This document shows positions 8,874 through 63,090 of a stretch of 64,000 bases of DNA, in pieces; position 1 is the stretch's first letter; every line of letters begins with the position of its first letter. The stretch covers positions 96,082 through 160,081 of the forward strand of contig CAVXGA010000012.1 of NCBI GenBank assembly GCA_963761195.1, written 5' to 3'. The translations under genes and the position numbers were made by a program. The stretch comes from an uncultured Bacteroidales bacterium. GTDB lineage: Bacteria; Bacteroidota; Bacteroidia; Bacteroidales; JAADJA01. The notes below the pieces were generated by a model. The model worked only from the letters and a program-made list of their open reading frames with translations, was not told where the DNA came from and did not search any database.

Positions 8874-9212
8874 TTATAAATTAAGTAATTCTTGAACTTC
8901 AGTTTTAAGTTTTGGTAGGTGATTAATCAGGATGCTCCAAATAAGATCATCTGAGATTTTATCATAACCATGTGCTATCCTGTTTCTTGTCCCAACAATT
9001 TTTTGCGCATTAACAAGTTCAAATTTCCTGTCCCTTTTAAGTATTCGGTTTGTAGCTTCTCCAATAATTTCGATATTGCGCTCAACAGCACGCTTAGTTT
9101 TTATGTCCTTAATATAGTTTTCAAATATCCTTGGTTTATCGGCAAAATAACTCTCAATCTCTTCAATGGATTGAATAATATCATACAACCATGTCTTTAT
9201 TTCATTATCCAT
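8874..9212 (-). CDS. hepT: HepT-like (DUF86) RNase toxin of a type VII MNT/HepT toxin-antitoxin pair
   Basis: Rx4HxY motif within TRNRIAHGYD. Overlaps the upstream MNT gene by 8 nt. Confidence 0.85.
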   Translation of the reverse strand: MDNEIKTWLYDIIQSIEEIESYFADKPRIFENYIKDIKTKRAVERNIEIIGEATNRILKRDRKFELVNAQKIVGTRNRIAHGYDKISDDLIWSILINHLPKLKTEVQELLNL

Positions 9213-9504
9213 AAATAAGTTGTTTGGATTGATCTATGGATTGCCGTAAATATGGATTTTTTATTGCTTTATCTTCCAACAAATCCACATCTCTATTGAA
9301 TAATCGTTCCAATGACTCTTTGAAATCGAAATAATTATCAGCATAATAATATAAGTCGACATCATTAAAATCTACTACAAAATCAATATCACTGGTTTTT
9401 CTGAATCTGCCAGTTAATACCGATCCAAAAGCAAATAGTTTACTCACCTTGTGTTTCTTACACAAATCATTAATAATTTCAATATTTCTATCAACAATAT
9501 CCAT
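9205..9504 (-). CDS. mntA: MNT nucleotidyltransferase antitoxin
   Basis: FGSVLTGRFRKTSDIDFVVDF, which is a GS...DxD minimal nucleotidyltransferase motif. Confidence 0.85.
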   Translation of the reverse strand: MDIVDRNIEIINDLCKKHKVSKLFAFGSVLTGRFRKTSDIDFVVDFNDVDLYYYADNYFDFKESLERLFNRDVDLLEDKAIKNPYLRQSIDQSKQLIYG

Positions 9505-9764
9505 GTAGCAAAGATAGTAATTTGCTTCAATTTTTGGTAAGTGTCTGTTTTTTAAGGTTACACCCGACTTGTTTATAAATGAACCTCTCCCCTTTCTACC
9601 AAAAGCGGTTTATCGTTTTTCTCTGAAATTTCAGGTTTTGTTTCTGCACCTCTATGCTTGTTTTGTGTGGCTAATGTAAAGGTTTTTTTGAAACAGCAGA
9701 ATAGTTTTTTATTCATTTAATTAAATCAGCCGGTAGAATGGGCTGGTAAGAGAATATTTCTCTG

Positions 9765-9834
9765 AAATGTGTGAATGATGTAACTCTTTTCTATAATTGT
9801 GTAATGCTTTCCGAAATAGATAGAATGACCTTTG
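9765..9834 (+). promoter_or_regulatory. Stress-gene upstream element, copy 1 (box A 9765-9784, box B 9795-9805, box C 9828-9834)
   Basis: AAATGTGTGAATGATGTAACTCTTTTCTATAATTGTGTAATGC, then 25 nt, then CTTTG. Starts 134 nt before the ATG at 9899. Confidence 0.7.
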
Positions 9835-9898
9835 CTATCGTAATCACTTATTTACGCCCGTCCCGCAGGAAGCGGGGAAATTTTCAAAACATAAAGTC

Positions 9899-10054
9899 AT
9901 GGGAAACTTACTCTATTTCTTAGCGGTTATCCTCCTGATAGGTTGGGCAATCGGATTTTTTGCCTATAGCGCCGGAGGGATTATACACATTCTGCTTGTA
10001 ATTGCAATTATTGCAATACTATTTCAGGTTATCCGGGGGAGAAGAACCATTTGA
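9899..10054 (+). CDS. lmo0937-family small membrane protein (51 aa; below the ORF-track cutoff)
   Basis: MGNLLYFLAVILLIGWAIGFFAYSAGGIIHILLVIAIIAILFQVIRGRRTI. It has the two-helix hairpin typical of this family. Confidence 0.75.
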   Translation: MGNLLYFLAVILLIGWAIGFFAYSAGGIIHILLVIAIIAILFQVIRGRRTI

Positions 10055-10209
10055 TCATGAAATTTATAGTTATTCGAATCATACTCTATGTTTAACCTTA
10101 AATGGCGTGCTTTGGTTTGATGTTAATCAACCCATATATATTTTAATTATCCATAAAGATTTAAATGAAGCAATAAAATTAATTTTAAATAAATTTAAAC
10201 ATAAAGAAA

Positions 10210-10710
10210 ATGAGAAGATCAGTGTTGACCATATTGTTAGTTTTAATAATTAGCATGCTTTTTGCCCAAACTCCGTTGCCGAATGGTAAGGTCCAGCTTA
10301 ATGCCGGGGTAGGTTTATATTCAGGCGGAATTCCCGTTTATGTAGGTTTCGATGTAGGTGTTCCCAAAGATTTTACCGTCGGCGGAGAATTGTCTTTCGC
10401 ATCCTATTACGATGACTGGCATTCCAGACATTACCATCATACGGTTACAGGTATTTCCGGCAATTTTAATTATCATTTTAACAGGTTGCTCAACATCACT
10501 CCAAAATGGGATGTGTATGCCGGTCTGAACCTGGGATTTTACATCTGGAATTCGCCCAACGATTATGAAGGAAATCATAGTTCAGGTCTTGGTTTGGGCT
10601 TACAGGTTGGCGGAAGGTACTACTTTACGGATAAATTCGGGATTAATCTTGAATTTGGTGGTGGTAATGAATTTTCGGGAGCCAAATTCGGTATTTCAAT
10701 CCGATTCTAA
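10210..10710 (+). CDS. Small outer-membrane beta-barrel protein (OMP_b-brl / OmpW-like)
   Basis: Signal peptide, alternating aromatic/Gly beta-strand pattern, and a C-terminal ...KFGISIRF. Confidence 0.65.
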   Translation: MRRSVLTILLVLIISMLFAQTPLPNGKVQLNAGVGLYSGGIPVYVGFDVGVPKDFTVGGELSFASYYDDWHSRHYHHTVTGISGNFNYHFNRLLNITPKWDVYAGLNLGFYIWNSPNDYEGNHSSGLGLGLQVGGRYYFTDKFGINLEFGGGNEFSGAKFGISIRF

Positions 10711-11001
10711 AATGCTTGCGGGTTAGGATGCCTTGAAAAAGATGCATCTAATGATACGCATATTTATTACAGGTATGCAGGTAAAATTCCTGTTTACTGT
10801 AGCTTTATTGCAATAGATAAGGAAATAACCACCTTCAAAAAACCATCCCGATTCGTGAAGGCTTCCTTTTAATTAATCTGTTAATTATTTTACCACTCAT
10901 TGTTTGCTTGACAAAACTTCAGGGATATCGATTCCAGACAATTGATTGACACGTTACTTTTTATAGACTTCAGTGACTAACCAAAAACGCATCCCATTTG
11001 T

Positions 11002-11071
11002 AAATGTGTGAATCATGTAACTCTTTTGCATAATTGTGTAATGCTTTCCGGAAAAGATAGACGGAACTTTA
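11002..11071 (+). promoter_or_regulatory. Stress-gene upstream element, copy 2
   Basis: AAATGTGTGAATCATGTAACTCTTTTGCATAATTGTGTAATGC, then 25 nt, then CTTTA. Also starts 134 nt before its ATG (11136). Confidence 0.7.
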
Positions 11072-11135
11072 CTCGTGTAATCATTTTATTAAACCTGTTA
11101 AAAAGGAAGCAGGAAATTTAAATAAATTTTTAGTC

Positions 11136-11291
11136 ATGAGAACTATGCTAAATGTCATTGCAATAATTTTGGTTGTTGCCTGGGCAATCGGATTTTTTAA
11201 ATACAGCGCCGGGGGAATGATAAACATTCTTCTTGCACTAGCTCTTTTTGCAGTATTGCTAAGGGTGTTGATGGGACCAAGAAGCATTTAA
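11136..11291 (+). CDS. lmo0937-family small membrane protein (51 aa)
   Basis: MRTMLNVIAIILVVAWAIGFFKYSAGGMINILLALALFAVLLRVLMGPRSI, a paralog of 9899-10054. The listed minus ORF 11081-11287 is its antisense shadow. Confidence 0.75.
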   Translation: MRTMLNVIAIILVVAWAIGFFKYSAGGMINILLALALFAVLLRVLMGPRSI

Positions 11292-11413
11292 AAATGCCTC
11301 CTTAATTACATGATCATTTATGGCAAATGCTTCATAATCTGCGAATTTTATCAGACGACTCCATGACCCCATAATTAAAATTATACGGATGTTAAAAAAC
11401 TAATTAAAGCTAC

Positions 11414-12457
11414 ATGATAGAGGTCAAAAAGGAAGGTATATTACTCACTAAAACAAATTTAGAATTTGAAAACGAAGGGGTTCTGAATCCTGCAGTAATT
11501 CGCGAAGGAGATAGTGTTCATCTTTTTTACCGGGCTGTGCAACAAGGAAATCATTCGAGTATAGGCTATTGCCGACTGGATGGTCCGTTAACTGTCGCTG
11601 AACGATGGGATAAACCTTTTATGGTTCCCGAATTTGAATACGAATCGCAGGGCGTTGAAGATGCTCGTATTGTAAAGATTGACGACCTGTTTTATTTGAC
11701 TTATACCGGTTACGACGGAACAAATGCCCGCGGAGCTTTTGCTACTTCAAAAGATTTAAGCCATTTCACAAAACAAGGGCTCATTGTTCCTCCCATAACG
11801 TATGCACAATTTGTATTCCTTGCTGAAACTGCCGGAAAAGTAAACCCAAATTATTACCGTAATCATAAGTTTTACTACCAGAAAGCTGATCCTGAAAAAA
11901 AAATAATGTTGTGGGACAAAAATGTAGTTTTCTTTCCCCGAAAAATTAATGGGAAATTGGTATTCCTTCACCGGATCAGGCCCGGCATTCAGATTGTTTC
12001 TATAGATCAAATAAAAGAACTAACTATACAATTCTGGGAAAACTATTTTATCAACCTGCAGGAACATATTGTTATGGATCCTGTTCATGCGCACGAATCA
12101 AGCTACATCGGCAGCGGCTGCCCACCTGTTGAAACAGAACACGGATGGTTGCTGATTTATCATGGAGTAAAAAAAACCCGCCAGGGGATTGTTTATTCGG
12201 CCTGTGCTGCCTTACTGGATCTGAATGATCCTTCGAAAGAGTTGGCGCGGCTGCCTTATCCATTATTTTCGCCGGAATATGAATGGGAATTGCATGGTGA
12301 GGTGAATAACGTCGTATTTCCTACCGGTACTGTGCTTTTTGGAAATACCCTATTTATATATTACGGAGCAGCAGATACACATAGTGCCTGTGCTTCCGTT
12401 AGTTTATCAGCAATATTGGAAGAATTGTTAACTTATACGAACAGTGATGAAAAATAA
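11414..12457 (+). CDS. Glycoside hydrolase family 130 (DUF377-type) protein, putative beta-mannoside phosphorylase/transferase
   Basis: GVLNPAVIREGDSVHLFYRAV, GVEDARIVKIDDLFYLTYTGYDG and WLLIYHGV are GH130 five-bladed propeller signatures. Confidence 0.7.
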   Translation: MIEVKKEGILLTKTNLEFENEGVLNPAVIREGDSVHLFYRAVQQGNHSSIGYCRLDGPLTVAERWDKPFMVPEFEYESQGVEDARIVKIDDLFYLTYTGYDGTNARGAFATSKDLSHFTKQGLIVPPITYAQFVFLAETAGKVNPNYYRNHKFYYQKADPEKKIMLWDKNVVFFPRKINGKLVFLHRIRPGIQIVSIDQIKELTIQFWENYFINLQEHIVMDPVHAHESSYIGSGCPPVETEHGWLLIYHGVKKTRQGIVYSACAALLDLNDPSKELARLPYPLFSPEYEWELHGEVNNVVFPTGTVLFGNTLFIYYGAADTHSACASVSLSAILEELLTYTNSDEK

Positions 12458-14903
12458 AATAGTTTCTATCGGATTTAATAATGTGATCAATCATCAGAAA
12501 GAGTTGTCTCATTTGAAAAATACCATTCCTACGAGAATCACTCTTAAAAACATTGATATAGAACCGAATCCGGACAAAAAAACGGATTTGGCTGAAATCT
12601 TGTTTATTACCTCCTATCCACCAAGGGAGTGCGGTATAGCGACCTATTCACAGGATTTGATAAAATCCCTTAATAATAAATTCAGCAATTCCTTCTCTAT
12701 AAAAGTTTGTGCGCTGGAATCAGGAGATGCCAATTATCCATATCCTGAGGAAGTAAAATGTATTCTTAAAACATCCCTGGCTTCCGGATATGATAAACTG
12801 GCATTGACCATTAATAATGACAATCGCATCAAAATTGTTCTGATACAGCATGAGTTCGGCTTTTATAGATTGCAGGAACAAGCATTTATAAAGTTTTTAC
12901 ATAAACTTTCAAAACCGGTTGTTATTGTTTTTCATACCGTATTGCCACATCCTGATGAAGCATTAAAATCAAAGATACAAAGTATTGCGGCTGCCTGCGA
13001 GGCCATTGTTGTAATGACCCATATTTCGGAAGGGATTTTAACAAATGATTATGGATTGCCGGATCAAAAAATATCCGTGATAGCCCACGGTACTCATTTG
13101 GTCTCCCATTTAAGTAAGAAATTTTTAAAAAGTAAATATGGATTAAAAGGCAGGAAAGTCCTTTCAACATTTGGCCTGCTAAGTTCGGGAAAGAGTATTG
13201 AAACTACATTGGAAGCATTGCCGGCCATTATAAAAACCAGCCCCGAAGTCGTATTTCTGGTAATCGGCAAGACCCATCCCGAAGTTGTGAAGACAGAAGG
13301 AGAAAAATACAGGGAAATGCTTGAACAAAAAGTGAAACAATATGATCTTCAGGATCATGTGATATTTATTAATAAATATGTTGCATTACCTGAATTGCTC
13401 GAATATTTGCAGCTTACCGATATTTACCTGTTTACCACCAACGATCCGAACCAGGCCGTAAGCGGCACATTTGCCTATGCCATGAGCTGCGCCTGCCCAA
13501 TCATCTCCACCCCTATTCCTCATGCAAGGGAAATATTGACTGAGGATACCGGAATTATTTTTGATTTTCGCAACTCAGAACAATTGGCTAATGGCGTTAT
13601 ACGGTTACTCACCGATGATCCGTTGCGAAGGAATATCAGTACAAATACGCTGGAGAAAATCGTCTCCACTGCCTGGGAAAATTCTGCCGTTGCACATGCA
13701 ATGCTGTTCGAAAAAATTGCCGGAGAAAAAATTGTGCTGCAATATAATCTTCCGGCCATCAACCTGGACCACCTGAAACAAATGACTACGGATACCGGGA
13801 TCATTCAATTTTCAAAAATCAATCAACCCGATATCAGTAGCGGTTATACCTTAGATGATAATGCCAGAGCACTGGTAGCCATGTGCATGCACTTTAAACT
13901 GACTGGTGATGAGTCGAGTGTAGATTACATTGCAAAATATCTCGATTTTATAAAATATTGCCAGCAACCGGCAGGAAATTTTTTAAATTATGTAGATAAG
14001 GATAACAATTTTACCGAACAAAACAATGCTGTCAATTTGGATGATGCCAATGGAAGAGCTGTTTGGGCCCTGGGATATTTAGTGTCATTATCGAGCCTGC
14101 TGCCCGCGGAGATTATTTTTGAGGCTAATGAAATCATTCAAAAAACAATTCCTCACATAGAAACAATGCATTCAACACGGGCTATGGCCTTTGCTATAAA
14201 AGGATTGTATTTCTATCATACGAGCATAAAACTGCCTGAACAGTTTAACCTGATTAAAACACTGGCAAATCGTTTGGTTCAGATGTATAAACATGAATCG
14301 GATGAAAAATGGGAATGGTTTGAAACCTATCTCACCTATGCCAACAGTATATTGCCCGAATCCATGTTATATGCCTGGTTATTAACCGGAGATACTGTTT
14401 ACAAAGACATCGCCAGATCATCGTTTAATTTTCTTTTATCGCAAACCTTTAATGAAAACGGGATAGAAGTAATTTCGAATAAAGACTGGCTGCAAAAGGG
14501 AGAGAATGCAGGGGGTTTTGGCGAACAACCTATTGATGTTGCCTATACCATAATGACTTTAAGCGCTTTTTATGACGAATTTATGGATGATAGCTATCGC
14601 CTGAAAATGGAAACGGCCTTCAACTGGTTTTTAGGGAACAACCGATTGCATCAGATTATTTATAATCCTTGCACCGGGGGTTGCTACGACGGGCTGGAAG
14701 AAAAACATGTGAACATAAATCAGGGTGCAGAGTCAACGATAAGTCATCTGATAGCAAGATTTACAATTGAAAAGTATAAAATTTCACAGACCCGACTTAA
14801 AACTCAATTGCGAAATCATATCAGGGTGCATAAAAAAAACAGCGAATTTGTATATTCGACCGTTGATAAAAATGAACCGGGTGCTCATTTTTTCATTTCA
14901 TAA
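12447..14903 (+). CDS. GT4-family glycosyltransferase fused to a C-terminal domain of about 400 aa with unknown function
   Basis: The N-terminal roughly 420 aa look like GT-B/GT4 (FITSYPPRECGIATYSQDL, a GKTHPEVV-type region). The C-terminal half has no motif I recognise. The start overlaps the GH130 stop. Confidence 0.65.
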   Translation: MKNKIVSIGFNNVINHQKELSHLKNTIPTRITLKNIDIEPNPDKKTDLAEILFITSYPPRECGIATYSQDLIKSLNNKFSNSFSIKVCALESGDANYPYPEEVKCILKTSLASGYDKLALTINNDNRIKIVLIQHEFGFYRLQEQAFIKFLHKLSKPVVIVFHTVLPHPDEALKSKIQSIAAACEAIVVMTHISEGILTNDYGLPDQKISVIAHGTHLVSHLSKKFLKSKYGLKGRKVLSTFGLLSSGKSIETTLEALPAIIKTSPEVVFLVIGKTHPEVVKTEGEKYREMLEQKVKQYDLQDHVIFINKYVALPELLEYLQLTDIYLFTTNDPNQAVSGTFAYAMSCACPIISTPIPHAREILTEDTGIIFDFRNSEQLANGVIRLLTDDPLRRNISTNTLEKIVSTAWENSAVAHAMLFEKIAGEKIVLQYNLPAINLDHLKQMTTDTGIIQFSKINQPDISSGYTLDDNARALVAMCMHFKLTGDESSVDYIAKYLDFIKYCQQPAGNFLNYVDKDNNFTEQNNAVNLDDANGRAVWALGYLVSLSSLLPAEIIFEANEIIQKTIPHIETMHSTRAMAFAIKGLYFYHTSIKLPEQFNLIKTLANRLVQMYKHESDEKWEWFETYLTYANSILPESMLYAWLLTGDTVYKDIARSSFNFLLSQTFNENGIEVISNKDWLQKGENAGGFGEQPIDVAYTIMTLSAFYDEFMDDSYRLKMETAFNWFLGNNRLHQIIYNPCTGGCYDGLEEKHVNINQGAESTISHLIARFTIEKYKISQTRLKTQLRNHIRVHKKNSEFVYSTVDKNEPGAHFFIS

Positions 14904-14926
14904 CAATGCCGCAGGTATCATACACA

Positions 14927-14963
14927 TTTTTCAGCATAAAATTGTAAAATATTGGCTGAAAAA
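14927..14963 (+). terminator. Inverted repeat TTTTTCAGC-N19-GCTGAAAAA, 3' of the GT4 gene
   Basis: A perfect 9-bp stem with A/T flanks, but the long loop weakens the call. Confidence 0.3.
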
Positions 14964-15397
14964 TATATAAAAATATTTTCACAACAGTAGTTATCGGAAT
15001 AACCTGCTATCAGGATACCCTGATTAACAAAAACCTATGGAATCAAGCAATACTCCCAATTCATAATTGCAACACTAACCATGGATCCAAAATAGATATG
15101 GTTGCTTCGCATAGCTGTTAAGTTTCGGTATAAAAGAATTGAGTAATTCCAAAAAAAGTTTATCATAGGCCGAATATAACCAAAATAAAGATAAATTTGG
15201 ATTTTTTTTATTGGTAATTCTGATTGCTTAATTCTATTGAAAAAGTATACGATATCAAGATTTTGTTTGAGGCTGATATTAGAATATTAGAGATGATTAT
15301 CTACTAATTAAGCATTTATGTGTGTGGTACAGATATTGCACAATAGAATAAGCACATTTCACCTTATATAAAAATTGAAGGTCTAATTTGATTTACA

Positions 15398-16870
15398 ATG
15401 CAAGTTAAAGTAACTAGAAAAGACGTATTATTTAAACCGGATCCAACCCGGGTAATAGCCCGATATATAAGTTATTCTGAAAGTAATAATATTCGCATTA
15501 TCTTAAATGTCCTTTCCATGTCGGAGCTGGATGTAGATATTGCTGTTAATCAGGTATTAAGAGGATATTCAAAAAGACATAGAAGAATTTCAAATATATT
15601 TGAAAAACACTTTATAAAGCTGAAGAATGATTTAGCATCAAAGAATATTATTCCAGATGCACTGAATCAGAACCGGAGGCTGTTGATAGGCTCCTATTTT
15701 ACGATGGAGTATTCCATTGAATCAGCTGCATTTTTTAATCCTTCGATAGTGGAGCATCCTGATCAGACTGAATTACAACATGGTGAAAAAAGGATAATTA
15801 TGAGCTTCAGGGCTACCGGTGAAGGTCATATATCTTCGATTGTTTTCCGTTCTGGTGTGCTGGATATGAATAATGTAATGAGTTTTGAGCCCCGTGGGAG
15901 AATGCTGGATGAACCTGAAACCATCAGGCATTATTTGTATGATAAAAAATCCTTTCAGGAAAAGTTGGAAAATATGAAATTTTATGACAACACCTTACCT
16001 CCTTCAGTAATCCTGGACCAGCTCGAAGATGAATTCACTTATCTCGAATTGCAAAAATGTGTGGAAGAGGCCAATAATACTTTTCCATTCTCAGAAATAA
16101 AAACCCTGACGCTAAAACAGATCATGTGGCTTGCTTCATCACATTATGAAATTGAATTTTCCTTTGATACTTCCATGTCAGAACGGGTTATTTTTCCGGT
16201 TATGCAAACTGAAAAAAATGGTATTGAAGACGCCCGTTTTGTCCGTTTTGTTGATGATGACGGAACCATAAAGTATTTTGCAACATATACAGCATATGAC
16301 GGATCCGTAATTATGCCCAAGCTGATCGAAACAAATTCTTTTTACAGGTTCCAGATTTCTCCGATTAATGGTGACTTTGCTATGAACAAAGGAATGGCAG
16401 TTTTCCCCAGGAAAATCAATGGGAAATATGCTATGCTGGGCCGTATTGATGATGCCTCCATCTACATTTCATTTTCGGATGATTATAAAGTCTGGAATGA
16501 AGCACAACTTATTCAGGAACCAAAGTACCCATGGGAATTTGTTAAAATAGGCAATTGTGGTTCACCGATTGAAACTGATGAGGGTTGGCTGATTATTACC
16601 CATGGGGTCGGACAAATGAGGGAATATGTTCTGGGTGCCAGCTTGTTCGATTTAGATAATCCAACCAAAGAAATCGGTAGATTAAAAACTCCAATGATGA
16701 TTCCCAACATGGAAGAGCGAGAGGGTTATGTCCCCAATGTACTCTATTCCTGTGGTTCTATTATAAATAACGGAGAACTTGTGATTCCTTATGCCATGTC
16801 AGATTATGCTTCTACATATGCTACTGTTAATTTAAAGGAACTTCTGGGTGAGTTGAAGAATTCCAAATAG
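15398..16870 (+). CDS. Long-form GH130 family protein (490 aa, about 150-aa N-terminal extension)
   Basis: GIEDARFVRFVDDDGTIKYFATYTAYDG, VFPRKINGKYAML and WLIITHGV. Confidence 0.7.
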   Translation: MQVKVTRKDVLFKPDPTRVIARYISYSESNNIRIILNVLSMSELDVDIAVNQVLRGYSKRHRRISNIFEKHFIKLKNDLASKNIIPDALNQNRRLLIGSYFTMEYSIESAAFFNPSIVEHPDQTELQHGEKRIIMSFRATGEGHISSIVFRSGVLDMNNVMSFEPRGRMLDEPETIRHYLYDKKSFQEKLENMKFYDNTLPPSVILDQLEDEFTYLELQKCVEEANNTFPFSEIKTLTLKQIMWLASSHYEIEFSFDTSMSERVIFPVMQTEKNGIEDARFVRFVDDDGTIKYFATYTAYDGSVIMPKLIETNSFYRFQISPINGDFAMNKGMAVFPRKINGKYAMLGRIDDASIYISFSDDYKVWNEAQLIQEPKYPWEFVKIGNCGSPIETDEGWLIITHGVGQMREYVLGASLFDLDNPTKEIGRLKTPMMIPNMEEREGYVPNVLYSCGSIINNGELVIPYAMSDYASTYATVNLKELLGELKNSK

Positions 16871-16964
16871 TGTCCCCAACATTATTTTTTATTCATTTGT
16901 GACTTCTTCATTATAAATATTTGTCCTGATTTACCTTCAGGTTCGAACATCCCACATTTTTTGA

Positions 16965-17034
16965 AAAGGTGTGAATTATGTAATTTTAATATAAAATTGT
17001 GTAACACATATTTTGCTATAGTTATTCAACTTTG
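16965..17034 (+). promoter_or_regulatory. Stress-gene upstream element, copy 3
   Basis: AAAGGTGTGAATTATGTAATTTTAATATAAAATTGTGTAACAC, then 25 nt, then CTTTG. Starts 99 nt before the ATG at 17064. Confidence 0.65.
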
Positions 17035-17063
17035 TAACAGTATTATTCACTAAAAAAAACAAG

Positions 17064-17840
17064 ATGAAAAAAACATTTCAATTCCTTGCATTCTTAACCT
17101 TGATTTTTAGCATGTTAATTATATCATGCGTACCAACCAGAAAACTTGAGGTTTCAAAAGCCAAAGTTGATAAGCTACAAAAAGACAGCACGAAAACGCA
17201 CAATCAACTGAATGAGTGCAATTCGCAAAAAGCATCCCTGCAGGATGAATACGCTGCTGTTCAAAATGATTTGAAGGTTCTTTCAACCGAATCAAATCTG
17301 ACCATTGCCGACCAGGCGAAACGATTGAAAAATCTTCAGGATATGATTCAGTCACAAAAGGATGTAATGACTAAACTTAAAAATTCAATAGCCGATGCGC
17401 TTATGAATTATAAAACCGATGAGCTATCCGTTTATACTAAAGACGGAAAGGTTTATGTTTCGCTTCAGGAAAAATTGCTTTTCAAATCAGGCAGCGATGT
17501 GGTTAATCCTCAGGGTAAAGAAGCACTTAAAACGCTTGCTCAGGTGCTCAACAGCACCAAAGACATTAATGTGTTGATTGAAGGCCATACGGATAATGTC
17601 CCTATTAAAACAAAATTGTTTAAAGATAATTGGGATCTCAGCACCGCAAGAGCCACATCCATTGTACGAATTTTGACAAAAGACAATGGCTTTGATTCGA
17701 GTCGTATAACAGCAGCAGGCAGAGGTGAATTTCATCCCGTATTAACAAATGAAACAGAGGAAGGACGTGCCGGCAACCGCCGAACTGAAATCATTCTATC
17801 ACCTAACTTGAGCGAGCTCTATAAACTATTGGGTCAATAA
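17064..17840 (+). CDS. OmpA-family lipoprotein with an N-terminal coiled coil
   Basis: Lipobox LIISC. The OmpA C-terminal domain shows TDNVPI...NRRTEIILSP. Confidence 0.8.
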   Translation: MKKTFQFLAFLTLIFSMLIISCVPTRKLEVSKAKVDKLQKDSTKTHNQLNECNSQKASLQDEYAAVQNDLKVLSTESNLTIADQAKRLKNLQDMIQSQKDVMTKLKNSIADALMNYKTDELSVYTKDGKVYVSLQEKLLFKSGSDVVNPQGKEALKTLAQVLNSTKDINVLIEGHTDNVPIKTKLFKDNWDLSTARATSIVRILTKDNGFDSSRITAAGRGEFHPVLTNETEEGRAGNRRTEIILSPNLSELYKLLGQ

Positions 17841-18081
17841 AAATGGATCGTGTTTTTGCCTCTCTTTAAGCAAAATTATATGTTAACTCATAGTATCAAT
17901 AATATACGCAAAGAACCAATGACTTAACCGGGTTAATCCGGTATTACGATACATTTAGGCTTTGTTCGTTTATCCTGATTTATCAAACGCTTCAAAGCCT
18001 TATTGTTTTTTATTATTTGAATTTTTATGCTTATTCATGTTAACTAATTTGGATTCAGTTACCTTTTAGAAAATTCACGAA

Positions 18082-18150
18082 AAATGTGTGAATTATGTAA
18101 TTCTTATCCTGAATTGTGTAATACTTTCTGCAGTCATTTGAATTACTTTT
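18082..18150 (+). promoter_or_regulatory. Stress-gene upstream element, copy 4
   Basis: AAATGTGTGAATTATGTAATTCTTATCCTGAATTGTGTAATAC, then 24 nt, then CTTTT. Starts 116 nt before the ATG at 18198. Confidence 0.65.
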
Positions 18151-18197
18151 AAGCGACTTATTTAACGGTAATTAGTTGGATGATGTAACCTCAGACA

Positions 18198-18362
18198 ATG
18201 AAAAATATACTTTATATCACCATCGTTTTACTTGTAATAATTTGGGCAATTATTTTTTTGAGTTTTAGTTCATTCATGATTGTTCATTTGTTGCTTGTAT
18301 TTGCGGGATTTTATTTACTCATTATCCTTAATTTTAATGAGGAATTATCAAGAAAATGGTGA
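18198..18362 (+). CDS. Small two-helix membrane protein (54 aa), a distant lmo0937-like paralog
   Basis: MKNILYITIVLLVIIWAIIFLSFSSFMIVHLLLVFAGFYLLIILNFNEELSRKW. Not in the ORF track. Confidence 0.55.
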   Translation: MKNILYITIVLLVIIWAIIFLSFSSFMIVHLLLVFAGFYLLIILNFNEELSRKW

Positions 18363-18432
18363 GTGTTAGTAATTGACGTTAAATAAAAATGCGATGTAAT
18401 TAAGTTGGTACTTACTTGTAATACTTTATGAT

Positions 18433-18618
18433 ATGGATTCAAAACTAAATCAGAGTAACTTAAATGAGCTTAAATCCAAGCTTAGAAAAAAATTCCCTCA
18501 GTTAACAGAAACTGATTTACAAAATAAAGAGGGTGCGGAAGAAAGTATGCTGAGAATGGTGGAATATAAACTTCGAAAGACAAAACAGCAGATGCAGGAA
18601 ATAATTGAAAAGCTTTAG
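18433..18618 (+). CDS. CsbD-like general stress protein (Bacteroidota type)
   Basis: The pattern NELKSKLRKKFPQLTETDLQNKEGAEESMLRMVEYKLRKTKQQ matches the NWNELKGK...LTDDDL...GK.DEL..KLQ CsbD-family layout. Confidence 0.6.
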   Translation: MDSKLNQSNLNELKSKLRKKFPQLTETDLQNKEGAEESMLRMVEYKLRKTKQQMQEIIEKL

Positions 18619-18668
18619 CCTGATTTCTTCCTGAAACATAATTAAGCATAAAAAGAAAGGAACTAGAA

Positions 18669-19535
18669 ATGAATTATTTGTATTTATTAATTCCACTTGC
18701 AGTTATTTTAATTGCAGGTATAAGAATTGTCAGACCCACACAAAGAGGGTTGATCGAAAGGCTTGGAAAATACCATAATTACGCGAATCCTGGATTTCAC
18801 TGGATTATTCCAATTATCGACAGGTTATTTATGGTAAATATAACCGAACAAATGGTAGATGCCGAGCCTCAGGAAATAATTACCAACGACAATTTGAATG
18901 CGAGCGTTGACGCGCAGGTATATTTCAGGGTGAAAGCCGATGAAGAAAACGTAAAAGGATCGACCTATAATGTGAATGATTACAAATGGCAGATTGTGAA
19001 CCTTGCACGGACGACGCTGCGTAATATTATCGGTACCCTTACGCTTAAATCGGCCAACAGCGAACGCGGTAAAATAAATGCCGGACTTTATGAAACTCTG
19101 CATAATGAAACGCAAAACTGGGGCATTGAAATCGTCCGCACAGAGTTGAAGGAAATTGACCCGCCTAAAGATGTGCAGGAAACCATGAATAAAGTAGTAA
19201 AAGCTGAAAATGAAAAAATTGCGGCTATAGATTCTGCGACTGCGGCCGAAACTGTCGCCGATGGGATAAAACGCGCCTCTATTAAAGAAGCGGAAGGGTT
19301 TAAACAATCGAAGATATTGCACGCCGAAGGGGAAGCTGAGGCCATTAGACTGGTAAATCAGGCAGCAGACAAATATTTTATCGGAAACGCTCAATTATTG
19401 CGGAAGTTGGAGGCAATGGAAACATCGCTCGAAAAGAATGCGAAAATTGTTATCCCAACCGGAACTGAATTGGTAAACATTATCGGAGAGATGGCAGGAA
19501 TAGTCCCTCTGACACGAAAACAAAAAGAAGATTAA
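18669..19535 (+). CDS. SPFH/band-7 (stomatin-like) membrane protein
   Basis: N-terminal TM segment followed by IRIVRPTQRGLIERLGKY...ITNDNLNASVDAQVYFRV. Confidence 0.85.
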   Translation: MNYLYLLIPLAVILIAGIRIVRPTQRGLIERLGKYHNYANPGFHWIIPIIDRLFMVNITEQMVDAEPQEIITNDNLNASVDAQVYFRVKADEENVKGSTYNVNDYKWQIVNLARTTLRNIIGTLTLKSANSERGKINAGLYETLHNETQNWGIEIVRTELKEIDPPKDVQETMNKVVKAENEKIAAIDSATAAETVADGIKRASIKEAEGFKQSKILHAEGEAEAIRLVNQAADKYFIGNAQLLRKLEAMETSLEKNAKIVIPTGTELVNIIGEMAGIVPLTRKQKED

Positions 19536-19667
19536 TTTTGAATTCATAATTGCATTTTATTGACGAATCTGTGTGAGGTTTAGTTAAATATAAGCATCGG
19601 CTAAAGTGCAGCAGTGAAAAGTTATAACCTTTTTCTGTCTTTAAATTTTCTTTAACAGAAACTATAA

Positions 19668-19736
19668 AAATGTGGGAATAATGTAAATCTTTTACAAAAT
19701 TGTGTAACGGATTCTGAAGGCAATTTACGTACTTTT
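19668..19736 (+). promoter_or_regulatory. Stress-gene upstream element, copy 5
   Basis: AAATGTGGGAATAATGTAAATCTTTTACAAAATTGTGTAACGG, then 24 nt, then CTTTT. Starts 236 nt before the ATG at 19904. Confidence 0.6.
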
Positions 19737-19903
19737 AATTTTTATTTTAAAAAATGGTGCTGAAGGAGTAACATATAGAAATAAAAATCCTGGGAAAATC
19801 ATAGACTTTGTCAGATAAACAGTAGTAATTGGTGGTATCGTTTTTTTCAGATTTAAACGTATTTATTTTGCTTCATTTTTATTCACACATAAAACCAACT
19901 GAA

Positions 19904-20104
19904 ATGAATGAAATCTTGACCCCCAAACAATGGAATGAACTCCGAATCCAATTAAAACAAAAACACCCTGAACTTACTGATGCTGATTTGCCTTATTATG
20001 AAGCCGAAGAAGAGGATATGTTGTGCATGATCGAATACGAGCTTCAAATGTATCATGAAAAAATGCCGCATACAAATAATGCTATTAGCCATTATTCCCG
20101 CTAA
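19904..20104 (+). CDS. CsbD-like stress protein, second paralog
   Basis: MNEILTPKQWNELRIQLKQKHPELTDADLPYYEAEEEDMLCMIEYELQ. The listed ORF start at 19829 is probably too early. Confidence 0.55.
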   Translation: MNEILTPKQWNELRIQLKQKHPELTDADLPYYEAEEEDMLCMIEYELQMYHEKMPHTNNAISHYSR

Positions 20105-20564
20105 ATAGATATAGTCGATAAAGTGTGAACGTTTAATCTGCAATTAAATTAAAAAGAATTTTAAGTTAGGTGTCGTGAGGGATTACGAAGCTATTTCCTA
20201 TCTGTAGTGGTCCAGTAAAACTGGTCAGAAATTATTAATTTTAAAATTTATCTCAAATGAAAAGATGTTTACAGTGTTAAGGCGCTTTTTGCGTAGGATA
20301 AATTAAAAATGTGCATGGAAATATTGCTGACTATTTTTGATCGTCGTCTATGCAACTGAACTAAGTGATCGAAGGAATCAGTAAAACTGTAATCAAGAGA
20401 ATTTTCATCAGGAGATGAGATCAATATTATGAAGGTTCGGGATCGAAATATATTTTAAAAAACCGCTTTCGAAATTGAATTAATAATTATTATGATTTTT
20501 AACCTTATATCTCATTGTTTTATTGAGCTTTACAAATGTTATTTATTTTAATTTGTTGTACCTA

Positions 20565-28576: not shown

Positions 28577-29963
28577 TTATATCATTTTCCGCGGATCGAC
28601 CCATTTGCTGAATTCCTCGTCGGTTACATAACCAAGACCCACTGCAGCTTCTCTTAATGTTAAACCTTCCTTATGTGCTTTCTTGGCTATTTCAGCAGCT
28701 TTTTCATACCCGATATGTGTATTTAAAGCCGTAACCAGCATCAATGAGTTTTCCAGATTTTTCTGTATAAAAGGCAGGTTTGGTTCGATGCCAATTGCGC
28801 AATTGTCGTTAAACGAAACACAGGCATCACCTAACAATCGGGCAGCCATTAGAAGGTTATATATCATTACCGGCTTGAACACATTCAGCTGGAAGTGACC
28901 CTGCATTCCCCCAACCGCAATTGCAGCATCGTTGCCGATAACCTGTGCACAAACCATGCTCAATGCCTCATTTTGAGTGGGATTTACTTTTCCCGGCATA
29001 ATCGAAGAACCGGGTTCATTTTCAGGTAGTTTTAGTTCACCAATTCCGCATCGTGGACCGGATGCAAGCATACGGGTATTATTTGCAATATGCATAAGAC
29101 TGACGGCAAGCGTTTTCAATGCTCCAGAAGTTTCAACCATTGCATCATGTGCTGAAAGGGATTCAAATTTATTTGCTGCGGTTCGAAACGGACATCCGGT
29201 TAGTTCTGCAATTTTAGCGGCAACTTTTTCAGAATATCCTGGAGGCGTATTGATCCCTGTACCAACGGCGGTTCCACCCAAAGCAAGCTCTTGCAAATGA
29301 TCAAGGGTATTTATTAACGCTTTTATGCCATGATCGAGCTGCGATGCATATCCGCTGAATTCCTGTCCCAATGTAAGCGGTGTAGCGTCCATAAGATGCG
29401 TACGTCCGGTTTTTACGATATCCTTAAAGTCAGCAGCTTTCTTCTGCCAGGGTTTTCTTTAAAAGTTCGACACCCGGAATGGTCGTTTCAACGATCATCT
29501 TATAGGCTGCAATATGCATTGCGGTAGGGAACGTATCGTTTGATGACTGAGATTTGTTTACATCATCATTGGGATGAATGGTCCGTTTCCCATCACCCAA
29601 TTGTCCGCCATTCAATACATGTGCTCTGTTGGCAATGACCTCATTCATATTCATATTGGATTGTGTACCGGAGCCTGTCTGCCAGATTACCAATGGAAAA
29701 TTATCATCCAGCTTACCTGCCAGAATTTCATCACAAACATCACTAATCAGCTTTGCTTTATCTGCAGAAAGAACACCCAAATCCTTATTGGTAAGGGCTG
29801 CTGCTTTTTTCAGATAGGCAAAGGCCATGATGATTTCTCTGGGCATTGATCCGGGTTCGCCAATCAGAAAATTCATTTTTGACCGCTGGGTTTGAGCACC
29901 CCAGTATTTGTCAGCTGGAACCTCTACAGTTCCCATCGTGTCCTTTTCAATTCTGTAATTCAT
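28577..29963 (-). pseudogene. fumC: Class II fumarate hydratase, split by a frameshift at about 29438-29440
   Basis: The N-terminal part ...[16 protein letters not shown]... ends at EESC*. Skipping one base restores [43 protein letters not shown] is present in the C-terminal part. Confidence 0.9.
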
Positions 29964-58701: not shown

Positions 58702-59235
58702 TTATTTCTTTACCATTGGATCAGGATGCGCAATTAATGCTTTCTTTTCTTCGAAATTAAATGGTTTGTCAAACGGGTTTTCTTTATTATGACATTTTTC
58801 ACAAACTTTCTGATCCGGAACAATCATTCCTTTTGTCTTGGCTAATGCAAGATCCTTCATGATGGTATTTGTTTTATATGCACTTCCCGGACCGTGGCAA
58901 GATTCGCAGGAGACACCTTCAGCTATTGTTATTCCTGCCATCTGGCTATCCTTTAGACTCCCTGCTGTAGAATGGCATTTTATGCAACTGGCTTCTTTGG
59001 TTGGATCTGCAATGTTATGTGCTTTTGCATAAGCTAACGATTTCTCATTGCTCAACGTTTTCATTGCGTTGGCATGCAAACTTTCCGACCAAATTTTATA
59101 CTGTTGACCCGTAGCAGGTTTGTTGTGGCAAATTTTACACTTTGCGGCACCAACATACTGGAAGTCTTGTGCTAAAAGAACGCTACCGCTGATAAACACC
59201 AGACCCAGAATTAGAAATAGATTTTTACTTTTCAT
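58702..59235 (-). CDS. Periplasmic tetraheme cytochrome c (cytochrome c554-like family)
   Basis: Signal peptide and four CXXCH sites: CKICH, CIKCH, CESCH, CEKCH. Confidence 0.8.
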   Translation of the reverse strand: MKSKNLFLILGLVFISGSVLLAQDFQYVGAAKCKICHNKPATGQQYKIWSESLHANAMKTLSNEKSLAYAKAHNIADPTKEASCIKCHSTAGSLKDSQMAGITIAEGVSCESCHGPGSAYKTNTIMKDLALAKTKGMIVPDQKVCEKCHNKENPFDKPFNFEEKKALIAHPDPMVKK

Positions 59236-59666
59236 ACATTTTAAATTTTAAGTTAAGTTACTTTTTTGTGCATTTTGAAATGCTAAATAAGTCAATTTTT
59301 AAATTCGATATATTTTTTACACTTTAAAATTAGTAACGTTAAGTCTTTTTTACAGAACAAAGATCGGGAAATATTTAACAATTAACATACCAATATACAA
59401 TTCTTTCAAAGAAAAAATTAATCTATTCAATTAACTTTACAAGACCATGAGAATTTGTAAAATTACAAAATAAATCAATGCGATCATGTAGAATAAATTT
59501 TCCCGATTTGCGAGTATATTAAGCACTTATCCAATTTGTTTTTAAGAATTTCAAATTAAGATCATCGAAGAAAATCTGTATTAAATTCAGTTTAGCCTGC
59601 TAAATTATAAAACTTTTGAATACTTATTTAAATATATACAGTATAACATATTTTTAAAAATAGTAC

Positions 59667-59692
59667 ACGTTTACCCTAAAAAGGGTAAACGT
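59667..59692. promoter_or_regulatory. Perfect 11-bp inverted repeat ACGTTTACCCT-aaaa-AGGGTAAACGT in the divergent cytochrome intergenic region
   Basis: Read directly from the sequence. Lies 86-111 nt upstream of the ATG at 59778. No + strand gene upstream that it could terminate. Confidence 0.5.
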
Positions 59693-59777
59693 ATTTTAGA
59701 ATCTATATAAATTAATAGTCAAGTATATATATTATTTATTATTTTAATAATTTCGGCAAGTTTTATCAGGATTTTGA

Positions 59778-62577
59778 ATGAAAAATAAAAATTTTAAAAT
59801 TAACAGAAGCTTTGTACTTCTCATTTACATAGCATTTTTTTTATCGTCAAACACAATTTTCGCTCAGTCGAATGATGATTGTCTTGCGTGTCACGAAGAT
59901 CCCGACCTGACCGCAGTGATACAGGGTAAAACAGTTTCCGTGTTTGTCAACAAATCCATATTGGCTAATTCAGTGCATAAAGATGTATTGTGTGCCTCCT
60001 GCCATCCCGATGCCCTGGTTGAAGAATTTCCTCATCCGGAAGAATTGAAACCGGTGAATTGTGGCAGTTGTCATGAAATACCTGAACAGCAATTTGAAAA
60101 AGGAATTCACGGGCAGGCACTGCAATTAAAAGCATTGTACGCACCAAATTGCAAAGAATGTCATGGTACGCACAACATTTTAGCTTCATCGTCCCCTAAA
60201 TCGAGGACTTATAAAATGAATATTCCAGTATTGTGTGGTAAATGCCACCGTGAAGGTGCCCCTGTGCAAAGAACATACAATATTAATGAACATAACATCC
60301 TCGAAAATTACAGTCAAAGTATTCATGGTGAAGGATTGTTTAAAAAAGGCTTGATCGTATCGGCAACCTGTAATGATTGTCATGGAAATCATTTAATATT
60401 ACCGCATACCAGTCCGAATTCGACAATTTCAGTCAATAATATTGCAAGTACATGCATGAAATGCCATGCAGAAATTGAGAAGGTTCATACTAAAATTATC
60501 AAAAAAGAGCTCTGGGAAAAAGAACCGGGTGCGATTCCGGCCTGTACTGATTGCCATCTTCCCCACAAGGTGGATGTTCAAAATATAGTTATAACGATTT
60601 CTGACCAAGCATGCTTGAAATGCCATGATCAGGTTGGTGTTCACAAAACCGTAAACGATTCTGTCATTTCTTTAAGGGTGACCAAAGATGACATTTCAAA
60701 TTCTGTTCATAAAAATATCCCCTGTGTAAAATGTCATTCAGATGTATCAACGCATTTGAAGCGTCCCTGCGAAACTGCCGGAAAAGTTGATTGCTCAAAT
60801 TGCCATGCTGATATTTCCAATATATATAATGAAAGCGGACATGGCCAAGCCTATTTTAGAAAAGATAAAAATGCTCCCTATTGCACAGATTGTCATGGAA
60901 CGCATAAGGTGAAATCGAGGTATGATGATACCAGTCCTACGTACAGAAGTGCCATTCCTACCCTTTGTGGTAAATGTCATAGAAAAAATGGGAAAGCTGT
61001 TGAAAATACTTCGTTAAAAGAAGTGGATGCTTTTCGCGATTATTCGTCAAGTGTACACGGCAGAGGATTAACAGAAAAGGGATTGTTGCCGAGTGCCGTA
61101 TGTACAGATTGTCACACGACGCATTACATTTTAAAAGAATCCGATGAACGTTCTTCCGTCAATCCTAAAAATATTCCCGCAACATGTGCTAAATGCCACA
61201 AGGGTATCTATAATGATTATATCAGCGGTGACCATTCCATACTGAAAGATGATAAAAAGCATAAATTTCCGACCTGTGCCGACTGTCATACAGCACATGG
61301 AATAACTGAAATTACCGAGGATAAATTCATGAATGAAGTCACACACCAGTGCGGCACTTGTCATGAAGAAGTTTCTAAAACATATATGGAAACGTACCAT
61401 GGTAAAGCTTACCAACTGGGTTATTTAAAAGCGGCGAAATGCTCAGACTGTCATGGCGCGCATAAAATTTATGATGTAAACAATCCGAAATCATCAGTTG
61501 GATCTCAAAATATTGTTGAAACCTGCAAAAAATGTCATCCGGATGCGAATAAGAGGTTTACGGGATATTTAACACATGCAACCCATCACAACAAAACCAA
61601 ATACCCAGTGTTGTATTTTACATTTTGGGGGATGACCGCGTTGCTGGTGGGGGTTTTCGGATTTTTCGGAATCCACCTGTTGCTATGGTTACCACGATCG
61701 ATACAAACGGTAAGGAAACGTAAACAGTTACGTGAATCCATTGGAGATAAATATTATATTCGACGGTTTACAAGAGGTCAACGCATAACCCATATTTTCG
61801 TTATTTTAAGCTTCATCATGCTTGCACTAACAGGTATGATGCTGAAGTTTGCCGGTATGGAATGGGCCAGCAGGTTAGCTGGTTTATTAGGAGGTGTAAA
61901 TATTGCCGGAAATATTCATCGCTTTGCGGCATTTATCACATTTGGCTATTTTACATTTCATATTACATCACTGATCCAGATGAAGGTTAAGCAACATATA
62001 CCTATTTGGAAATTCATTTTCGGAAAGAATTCATTAATGTTCACAAAACAGGATCTGCTTGATTTCAGGGATACAATAAAATGGTTCTTAGGCAGAGGCG
62101 TCCGTCCTGAATATGGTCGATGGACTTACTGGGAAAAATTTGATTATTTCGCTGTATTTTGGGGAGTCGCCGTGATAGGCTTTTCAGGATTAATTCTATG
62201 GTTCCCGGAATTTTTTACAAAATTATTTCCTGGCTGGCTAATAAATGTTGCGATGATCATACACAGTGATGAAGCTTTGCTTGCAGTAGGATTCATCTTC
62301 ACCATACACTTTTTTAACACGCACCTCCGTCCGGATGCGTTCCCAATGGATACCGTAATTTTTACCGGAACCGTTCCATTTCGAAGAATATAAGCTTGAT
62401 CGGCCCCGTGAATATGAAGAATTAAAAAGATCAGGCCGACTGAAAAAAGTGATTATTAAACTGGAAGAAAAAAACAAATGGGAGAAAGTTATCAAAGTTT
62501 TTGGTTATTTTTTCCTAACTGTAGGTCTTTCTCTGGTTGTATTGATTATTTATTCCATGCTATTTGGATATAAATAA
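59778..62577 (+). pseudogene. 19-heme cytochrome c fused to a FdnI/HydC-type membrane cytochrome b domain (CbcL-like quinol oxidoreductase). A single frameshift at about 62382 truncates the last roughly 60 aa
   Basis: 19 CXXCH sites counted between aa 35 and 587. The C-terminal region has about 5 TM helices with conserved His ([26 protein letters not shown]). After VPF, skipping c62382 restores [20 protein letters not shown] plus a final TM, ending at the TAA at 62575-62577. Confidence 0.8.
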
Positions 62578-63090
62578 AGACCTTTCATAAAAGAGCGTAC
62601 TGTTCATCTATGCTTTCCTTTTATAAATCTTCTAATCAGCATTCATCATCTTGATTATTGGTTAAGTGTGTTTTGTTTTAATGGCAAATACTTTCCTAAT
62701 CTAAAATTCTACAAGTATTTTAAGGATAACCAGCATTATCAGAACATTCTACCAAATAATTGTCCGTTAGTTTAACTTAAATCTTTACTTGTTAGGGTAA
62801 AACAGTTGAAATTTATTAGCAAAAAAGCTGCATTATATCATTATAATAACAGTTTTATATCATAGTATCTGCATTGTCCATATGTATGTATATATCTACA
62901 TTTATGCCAATTTAAAATAAACACAATTGTAATATGTTCGTACATTTAATTAACTCATTTCTTTGTTTGCGGCGCTTATTACTTTCGGGGTTTTTATATT
63001 GCAGAGTGACTGCCAATTATCACTATAATTAAAGTATCAAAATAGCGACAGTTAATCACAGGAACTATTTATTTGAAAGATAAATTTACT

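Follow-up and report, generated by a model that had tools for sequence, protein, structure and literature searches.

What reads the 43-nt element that stands in five copies upstream of five transcription units, within 10 kb of DNA of an uncultured Bacteroidales bacterium (assembly GCA_963761195.1, contig CAVXGA010000012.1, positions 96,082 to 160,081 of the forward strand), and which genes are placed under its control? The whole stretch analysed, 64,000 nt long, is called here the window, and positions are counted from its first letter. An initial annotation had interpreted the element as the mark of a putative stress regulon with no known regulator, and had considered for it both the layout of an extracytoplasmic function (ECF) sigma promoter and an activator site. 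Our analysis favours, with a probability of about 0.6, an AraC-type, class-II-like activator site set on sigma-A promoters of a stress regulon.

The element occurs as five gap-free copies, all on the + strand, at positions 9765, 11002, 16965, 18082, and 19668, as originally claimed. All five fit the 41-nt degenerate pattern AAAKGTGKGAATNATGTAA-N11-AATTGTGTAAY with 0 mismatches, and the pattern has 0 matches in 100 dinucleotide shuffles of the window. Two details of the initial annotation had to be corrected. Its search pattern with an N12 spacer gives 0 matches, the real spacer being N11, and the third short box, placed 24-25 nt downstream, starts exactly 21 nt past the 43-mer in 5/5 copies. 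No weaker copies were found in the 64-kb window beyond these five, even at ≤ 8/29 mismatches. In the alignment of copies together with their flanks, similarity sets in sharply at AAA, and after the 43-mer only the third box is conserved. Similarity ends at the element edges in copies 3-5, while copies 1 and 2 are the exception, being paralogous duplicates with flanks that are alike too.

In copy 1, the proposed activator site (9765..9807, +) is composed of box 1 AAATGTGTGAAT, repeat 1 AATgATGTAAC, and repeat 2 AATTGTGTAAT. It is followed by the third box GACCTTTG (9827..9834, +), which resembles the -7 element of sigma-A promoters and would place the transcription start near 9839. The remaining proposed sites were located by pattern match, all on the + strand, and each has its -7-like box on the same strand: copy 2 (11002..11044) with GAACTTTA (11064..11071; start predicted near 11076), copy 3 (16965..17007) with CAACTTTG (17027..17034; start predicted near 17039), copy 4 (18082..18124) with TACTTTTA (18144..18151; start predicted near 18156), and copy 5 (19668..19710), also with TACTTTTA (19730..19737; start predicted near 19742, leaving an unusually long leader of 162 nt).

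A motif scan with one genome per species, using the 20-base core GAATNATGTAA-N11-AATTGTGTAA, disclosed at least 120 loci; counts out of 120 given below are among the loci listed. Nearly all are from Bacteroidota, several of them from cultured strains (cultured carriers include Maribellus maritimus 5E3, Ancylomarina salipaludis SHSM-M15, and Gaoshiqia hydrogeniformans Z1-71), and they comprise Bacteroidales, Prolixibacteraceae and relatives, Chitinophagales, Saprospiraceae, Flavobacteriales, Cyclobacteriaceae, and Lentimicrobiaceae, together with one Ignavibacteria genome. Among the loci listed, the window's own genome is absent, and the closest shows 79% identity over the SPFH gene. The only exact core matches outside Bacteroidota and Ignavibacteria among them are in metagenome-assembled genomes of Syntrophales (L058) and Thermotogaceae (L069). 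Of these two sites, one is terminal on its contig and the other falls within a long open frame; chance or mis-binning of the contigs probably accounts for them.

With the G of GAAT numbered as position 0, alignment of 127 instances revealed conservation at positions that had not been used for selection, namely AAATGTGT before the core and T at +12 and +15. At a constant distance, a box at +54..+61 is conserved in A55, C57, and T58-T59-T60-G61. The same conservation pattern was observed in an independent set of 95 instances. The conserved module of about 70 nt is phylum-wide in Bacteroidota and not local to the window.

Within the 43-mer, positions 1-12 (AATnATGTAAcT) and 22-33 (ArTTrTGTAAca) make up a direct repeat with a period of 21 bp, their consensus sequences being equal at 10/12 positions (127 + 95 instances). 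Relative to the inferred start, the repeats, with the consensus AATnRTGTAAC, are located at -65..-55 and -44..-34, and an additional TGTGTGA box at about -71..-65. The end of repeat 2 precedes the A of the -7-like box by 22 nt, which corresponds to about -34 if this box occupies -12..-5, the start itself being predicted. Spacing between the boxes shows no length variation at all, either in the window copies or in the 127 instances. A fixed, ungapped layout that extends over two helical turns and ends at the expected site of sigma region 4 corresponds to the geometry of activators bound to tandem direct repeats. The activator-site option of the initial annotation fits, with 21-bp-period direct repeats upstream of a sigma-A-type box. 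Half-sites of CRP/Fnr and Rex, considered for the likeness to TGTGA, were dropped because the partner half-site is missing from the consensus, as inspected by eye.

The third box reads n-A-c-C-T-T-T-G, with the A present in 111/127 instances, the first two T in 121-122/127, and the third T in 102/127. The sequence TAnnTTTG at -12..-5 is the -7 element recognized by the primary sigma-A of Bacteroidota (PMC9723704; PMC7366714), and the third box (nAnCTTTG) agrees with this consensus except for a weak first T. Read as the -7 box, it leaves the 43-mer upstream of the core promoter, at about -74..-32. TTTG, expected for a -33 box at 19-21 nt ahead of the -7 box, was not found; positions 30-34 read AAyrn, and the repeat sits there.

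Open reading frames (ORFs) of at least 40 codons that begin with ATG 15-75 nt past the third box were searched for in 123 instances. Such an ORF was found in 76% of them, most frequently at a distance of 30-39 nt, compared with 17% when the search was directed the other way and 20% for positions drawn at random from the same loci. Only 4/130 elements are within long open frames, as opposed to 74% of random 70-nt segments. A start 5 nt past the third box would leave a leader of about 30 nt, which is of similar order to the quoted 5' untranslated region of 32 bp (PMC9723704).

The fixed -7-like box, the distance to ATG, and the avoidance of ORFs together indicate that the module is a promoter, and we consider it very probable that it is an activator-dependent promoter of the sigma-A type. 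The initial annotation was right to see in the element a promoter-associated signal rather than a dispersed repeat, since 76% of instances are co-oriented with a gene start and 4/130 are inside open frames. The scan of related genomes that it proposed for orientation and start-codon distance showed the element co-oriented with the gene, and ATG mostly 30-39 nt past the third box. Its view that the element is unlike the housekeeping promoter did not hold, as the third box is a -7 box of the sigma-A type at a fixed distance, with ATG about 35 nt later.

The candidate for the activator emerged from clustering of ORFs in the 120 motif loci. Histidine kinases were found in 30 loci, and the next most recurrent was a protein of 179-193 aa, present in 23. 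This protein belongs to the AraC family (PF12833, HTH_18, 1.3e-15; PF00165, HTH_AraC, 1.5e-10), its sequence matches in PDB are AraT, YesN, and XylR, and it is the sole regulator among the 45 largest ORF clusters of the motif loci. The family comprises at least 8000 members at 90% clustering, which carry generic names only. An AlphaFold model (predicted local distance difference test score 87) consists of a beta-alpha-beta-beta-alpha-beta N-terminal domain, a long linker helix, and a DNA-binding domain. The modelled DNA-binding domain superposes on MarA, SoxS, AraC, and AdpA, and Rob is also among the structural matches. The N-terminal domain of about 70 aa adopts an HMA/ferredoxin-like fold, with weak similarity to HMA metallochaperones.

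The gene for this protein and the element are linked in a peculiar way. In seven motif loci, the AraC-like gene terminates at the very TGA that belongs to box 1 (..AAT GTG TGA AT), so that the next promoter begins in the last codons of the gene. The overlap was observed in L008, L022, L041, L057, L060, L083, and L119, and in 20 of the loci L121-L200 described below (27 in total); the DNA that encodes the C-terminal residues ..LE(N/D)V is at the same time box 1 of the next promoter. In two motif loci, the element is upstream of an operon led by the AraC-like gene and continued by a histidine kinase, with a receiver added in L108. Regarding the proposal to look for a regulator whose own promoter carries the element, the AraC-like gene is indeed preceded by it in some loci.

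In a reverse test, 80 metagenome loci (L121-L200, 518 kb) were picked only by homology to the AraC-like protein, and sites were accepted at ≤ 3/20 mismatches. This search gave 97 sites versus 0 in reversed sequences, and 52/80 loci were positive. Twenty sites overlap the stop codon of the AraC-like gene in the same register and six are upstream of the gene at promoter distance. Among the others, 49 are further downstream, 11 further upstream, and 2 inside the gene, all on the same strand, while 9 are on the other strand; altogether, 88/97 sites are on the strand of the AraC-like gene. The HMA-AraC protein is thus, on this linkage, probably the activator of the element. The assertion that there is no known regulator requires qualification, as an AraC-family gene that is tightly linked to the element makes a strong candidate, although the window has no such gene.

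Other genes accompany the AraC-like gene. The usual next gene is a small stand-alone cupin of 114-118 aa, found in this position in 32/80 loci. Since the sensor domain of classical AraC is a cupin, an AraC-like gene with a separate cupin looks like a split arrangement. In another recurrent gene order, the AraC-like gene is followed by a cytoplasmic PAS hybrid histidine kinase (with receiver and HPt) and a single-domain receiver of 144 aa ending in ..NWYMERM. This order was observed in L011, L085, L097, and L108, and in 16-18 of L121-L200, with no DNA-binding response regulator there.

Other readings of the element have to be weighed against the AraC-type activator site. Five near-identical copies in 10 kb, of which copies 1 and 2 are recent duplicates with genes included, might indicate a dispersed repeat or miniature inverted-repeat transposable element that lies in intergenic DNA by chance. 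This is scarcely credible given that similarity stops at the element edges in copies 3-5, that the element points towards a gene start at a fixed distance in 76% of instances and is inside open frames in only 3%, and that the module is conserved across Bacteroidota orders before different genes. Being conserved, oriented, and located upstream of genes, the block could also act as RNA, either as a 5' leader element or as a small RNA, and single window copies fold into hairpins of -6 to -12 kcal/mol. However, base pairs were predicted by RNAalifold for neither strand in 100 instances (energy 0.0), and the boxes are without any length variation. Except for two tRNAs, no Rfam family was detected over the whole window at the gathering threshold, and Rfam at E ≤ 1 over 9600-20300 returned two sub-threshold chance matches only. 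We hold an RNA element to be very improbable. An alternative sigma factor of the ECF type that reads the 43-mer directly, with GTAAC as -35 and the GTAA 16 nt later as -10, is improbable as well, if to a lesser degree. TGTAAC is similar to the -35 boxes of ECF sigma factors (Bacillus sigma-X, for example), and the spacing GTAAC-N16-GTAA is present in the consensus. Against this, the C of GTAAC is weak (69/127 and 59/95, and T or A in two window copies), there is no CGT-type -10 box, and a more strongly conserved box is found 22 nt further on. This conserved nAnCTTTG box at a fixed distance would be left unexplained, and it matches the -7 element of sigma-A; the distance to ATG also suits a start past it. 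Finally, ECF-like ORFs (phmmer with RpoE and SigW) were found in 2/120 and 0/80 linked loci, and the ECF-sigma layout suggested in the initial annotation was not substantiated.

The serious remaining rival retains the promoter and changes its reader. Some other transcription factor, for example a LytTR-type response regulator, would bind the element, and the AraC-like gene, the cupin, and the kinase would be members of the regulon only. LytTR-type response regulators use direct repeats with a 21-bp period, and such repeats just upstream of the core promoter would suit them. The window has five sites and yet no AraC-like gene, and the element precedes the AraC-like gene in some loci, as it would for any regulon member. 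What speaks for the AraC-like protein instead is that no other DNA-binding family recurs in the loci, that LytTR-like ORFs were seen in 2/120 and 1/80 loci (in single-sequence searches of limited sensitivity), that the reverse test started from AraC homologues gave 97 sites versus 0 in the control, and that the overlap of the stop codon with box 1 recurs in 27 loci. On this balance we consider a different factor unlikely.

Several observations weigh against the AraC-type reading and are gathered here. The first T of the -7-like box is present in only 53/127 and 24/95 instances, and the core positions of both logos are partly set by how the instances were selected. Twenty-eight of the 80 AraC-like loci are without a site at the threshold used, many of them being only 1-2 kb long. 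A tblastn search of the window found neither the AraC-like gene nor the receiver, and their link with the element rests on other genomes. A histidine kinase and receiver are proposed as input, yet the AraC-like protein has no receiver domain. The AraC-like gene could be a mere member of the regulon and not its regulator.

With these points considered, the AraC-type reading can be stated as follows. Each copy would represent the upstream half of an activator-dependent promoter for RNA polymerase carrying the Bacteroidota sigma-A. The third box (nAnCTTTG) would serve as the -7 element, with transcription predicted to start about 5 nt past it, and the two direct repeats would stand in for the -33 element. 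The polymerase would be recruited by an activator sitting on the repeats along one helical face, in the manner of AraC at araI1-araI2. The likeliest activator would be the Bacteroidota AraC-family protein of about 180 aa, with an HMA/ferredoxin-like N-terminus and a MarA/AraC-type double helix-turn-helix C-terminus. The element is often located before the AraC-like gene, which suggests positive autoregulation, and the small cupin and the PAS hybrid kinase with its single-domain receiver are possible signal inputs. Genes driven in this way would form a stress-protection regulon. Activation rather than repression, binding by the AraC-like protein, transcription starts, and inducing signals are to be understood as predicted.

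The stress role is suggested by genes that follow the element. Elsewhere, the first genes behind it include CsbD (10 instances), lmo0937 (6), YtxH, and the small cupin of 114-118 aa. Further first genes encode ferritin/Dps, manganese catalase, a BON-domain protein, glycine-zipper OmpA, DUF6600, DUF305/DUF4142, a 147-aa lipoprotein family, and a B12-binding radical SAM protein. One signal is thus found before many unlinked stress-protection genes, SPFH included, as is characteristic of a general stress regulon. The coherent stress-type gene set described by the initial annotation is seen both in the window and across Bacteroidota (CsbD, lmo0937, YtxH, Dps, Mn catalase, and BON), and the element apparently marks a stress-protection regulon, as read from gene content.

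In the window, the first gene of unit 1 (9899..10054, +) encodes an lmo0937/DUF5670 mini membrane protein of 51 aa, assigned by Pfam/NCBIfam. The outer-membrane beta-barrel protein of 166 aa encoded next (10210..10710, +; family match) is probably co-transcribed with it, because no terminator-like site is present on the + strand between the 9899 and 10210 genes. A general scan for sigma-70-type promoters and terminators performed no better than on shuffles and was uninformative. Unit 2 also begins with a 51-aa lmo0937/DUF5670 mini membrane protein (11136..11291, +; Pfam/NCBIfam). It is followed by genes for GH130 (347 aa) and GT4 (819 aa), recognized by family match (11414..14903, +), which are without an element of their own and are probably read from copy 2. 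Their membership in unit 2, already guessed in the initial annotation, is supported by relatives of the 819-aa GT4 near the motif elsewhere, where 14/17 ORFs are within 3 kb downstream of it (11 other loci).

A second GH130 of 490 aa (15398..16870, +; family match) likewise lacks its own element, which makes its membership uncertain; its relatives were found in 11 motif loci and 5 AraC-like loci. The set GH130 - GT4 (819 aa, with a long C-terminal extension) - GH130 (490 aa), at 11414-16870, also occurs near the motif or the AraC-like gene elsewhere (L048, L156, L191, L195, and L199), and may make or recycle a mannoside-type protectant.

Unit 3 consists of an OmpA-domain lipoprotein of 258 aa (17064..17840, +; Pfam/NCBIfam). 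Family search in unit 4 (18198..19535, +) covered a 54-aa mini protein with two transmembrane segments, a divergent CsbD-like protein of 61 aa, and an SPFH/Band 7 protein of 288 aa, while a divergent CsbD-like protein of 66 aa, 41% identical to the 61-aa protein, is encoded behind copy 5 (19904..20104, +). Pfam/NCBIfam confirmed the SPFH, OmpA lipoprotein, beta-barrel, GH130, and GT4 assignments made earlier, and the second GH130 as well. Among three proteins called lmo0937-like, those at 9899 and 11136 were verified as lmo0937/DUF5670, and the third, the 54-aa mini protein at 18198, is without a family match in the libraries searched. Neither CsbD-like protein gave a match (the 61-aa protein in Pfam and NCBIfam, the 66-aa protein in NCBIfam only). 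Their assignment is nevertheless backed by similarity, as identity to a Pfam-positive CsbD reaches 44% in the 61-aa protein, to which the 66-aa protein is related at the level given above.

Leaders in the window differ in length. Units 1 and 2 (9765-10054 and 11002-11291), each comprised of the element, a 60-nt leader, and the lmo0937 gene, are paralogous duplicates that are alike beyond the element, and their leaders have a short GC hairpin right before ATG, as in CCCGCaggaaGCGGG at 9862-9876. The leader of copy 5 (19742-19903) extends over 162 nt before the ORF of the 66-aa CsbD-like protein, whereas those of the other four units are 25-60 nt long; a small RNA, an attenuator, or a tiny ORF that escaped recognition could be present in it.

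The genes immediately upstream of copy 1 constitute a toxin-antitoxin pair according to Pfam, with a HepT-like ribonuclease (8874-9212, -) next to an MNT-type nucleotidyltransferase (9205-9504, -). The pair (8874-9504) occupies the spot in which the AraC-like gene often sits in other genomes. Further away, class II fumarase (28577-29963, -) is divided into two ORFs, one corresponding to Lyase_1 1-145 and the other to 162-312 plus the FumaraseC C-terminus, which reflects a frameshift, pseudogenization, or a sequencing error. Multihaem c-type cytochromes (cytochrome c554/c7/c3 families) are clustered at 58702-63690, with one of them fused to a cytochrome b561-like membrane domain.

To our knowledge and in the searchable literature, no general stress response has been described for Bacteroidota. 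The proposal that the element, the HMA-AraC protein, the small cupin, and the PAS hybrid kinase with its receiver together constitute it is put forward tentatively. If true, a phylum-wide autoregulated activator acting on sigma-A promoters would do the job that sigma-B, RpoS, or EcfG does elsewhere, and the stop codon of the regulator's own gene would be built into the first box of the next promoter. In full-text literature, with subscription journals outside reach, we found no description of the element, of its phylum-wide spread, or of a stress regulon run by sigma-A. The same literature, again excepting subscription journals, does not describe the HMA-AraC family with its stop codon in the next promoter, or the associated cupin, kinase, and receiver.

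Bacteroidota dominate polysaccharide turnover in gut, soil, freshwater, and marine environments. A 70-nt signature that can be searched for in any genome would define the regulon by computation, and would provide a functional setting for many uncharacterized small proteins (DUF5670/lmo0937, DUF6600, DUF4142, the 147-aa lipoproteins, and the small cupin, for example). The candidate regulator and set of sensors to which it points can be deleted in cultured species, and for genetic work in Bacteroidota it would offer a promoter part that is compact and probably inducible.

The proposed mechanism, as deduced from promoter architecture, is of a known kind, that of an AraC/XylS-type, class-II-like activator. 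AraC and RhaS bind direct-repeat half-sites that partly overlap the -35 box (PMC11983282). As at araI1-araI2 of PBAD and at PRha (PMC11983282), the half-sites form a direct repeat of two units with a period of about 21 bp, of which the proximal unit is here predicted to be near -35. The linked protein has the same double helix-turn-helix domain, and autoregulation is suggested by upstream elements. Differences are found in the N-terminal domain, which is here a 70-aa HMA/ferredoxin-like fold instead of a cupin, with a separate small cupin gene usually following, and in the core promoter, where a -7 box of the Bacteroidota sigma-A type stands without a -33 box; binding of the site by the AraC-like protein is here a prediction. 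Its targets would be dozens of stress genes and not one catabolic operon.

With regard to content, the regulon resembles those of sigma-B in Bacillus and Listeria, EcfG-NepR-PhyR in Alphaproteobacteria, and RpoS, which share CsbD, YtxH, Dps, catalase, BON/OsmY-like, and lmo0937-type genes. In all of them, one shared signal precedes many scattered small stress genes. In contrast to these systems, the signal in Bacteroidota is an upstream site on a promoter of the housekeeping type, without linked sigma or anti-sigma genes; stress induction of the genes behind it is predicted. As far as we know, Bacteroidota are devoid of the sigma-B, sigma-S, and EcfG systems.

MarA/SoxS/Rob and GadX/GadW/YdeO of Enterobacteria are similar in having an AraC-family DNA-binding domain and a multi-gene stress regulon, the latter proposed here. 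They bind single asymmetric 20-bp boxes or other layouts, unlike the fixed tripartite site of 41 bp, and differ in the N-terminal domain, phylum, and polymerase specificity. Motifs SM1-6 of F. psychrophilum, among them the alternative promoter motifs SM4-6, are different from the present element. In Bacteroides thetaiotaomicron, PM2 is likewise a non-canonical motif before stress-related (oxidative) genes of a member of Bacteroidota (PMC7366714). PM2 is near-palindromic and centred at -10 and -30, whereas the present element keeps the -7 box and reaches to -74 in the form of direct repeats (PMC7366714).

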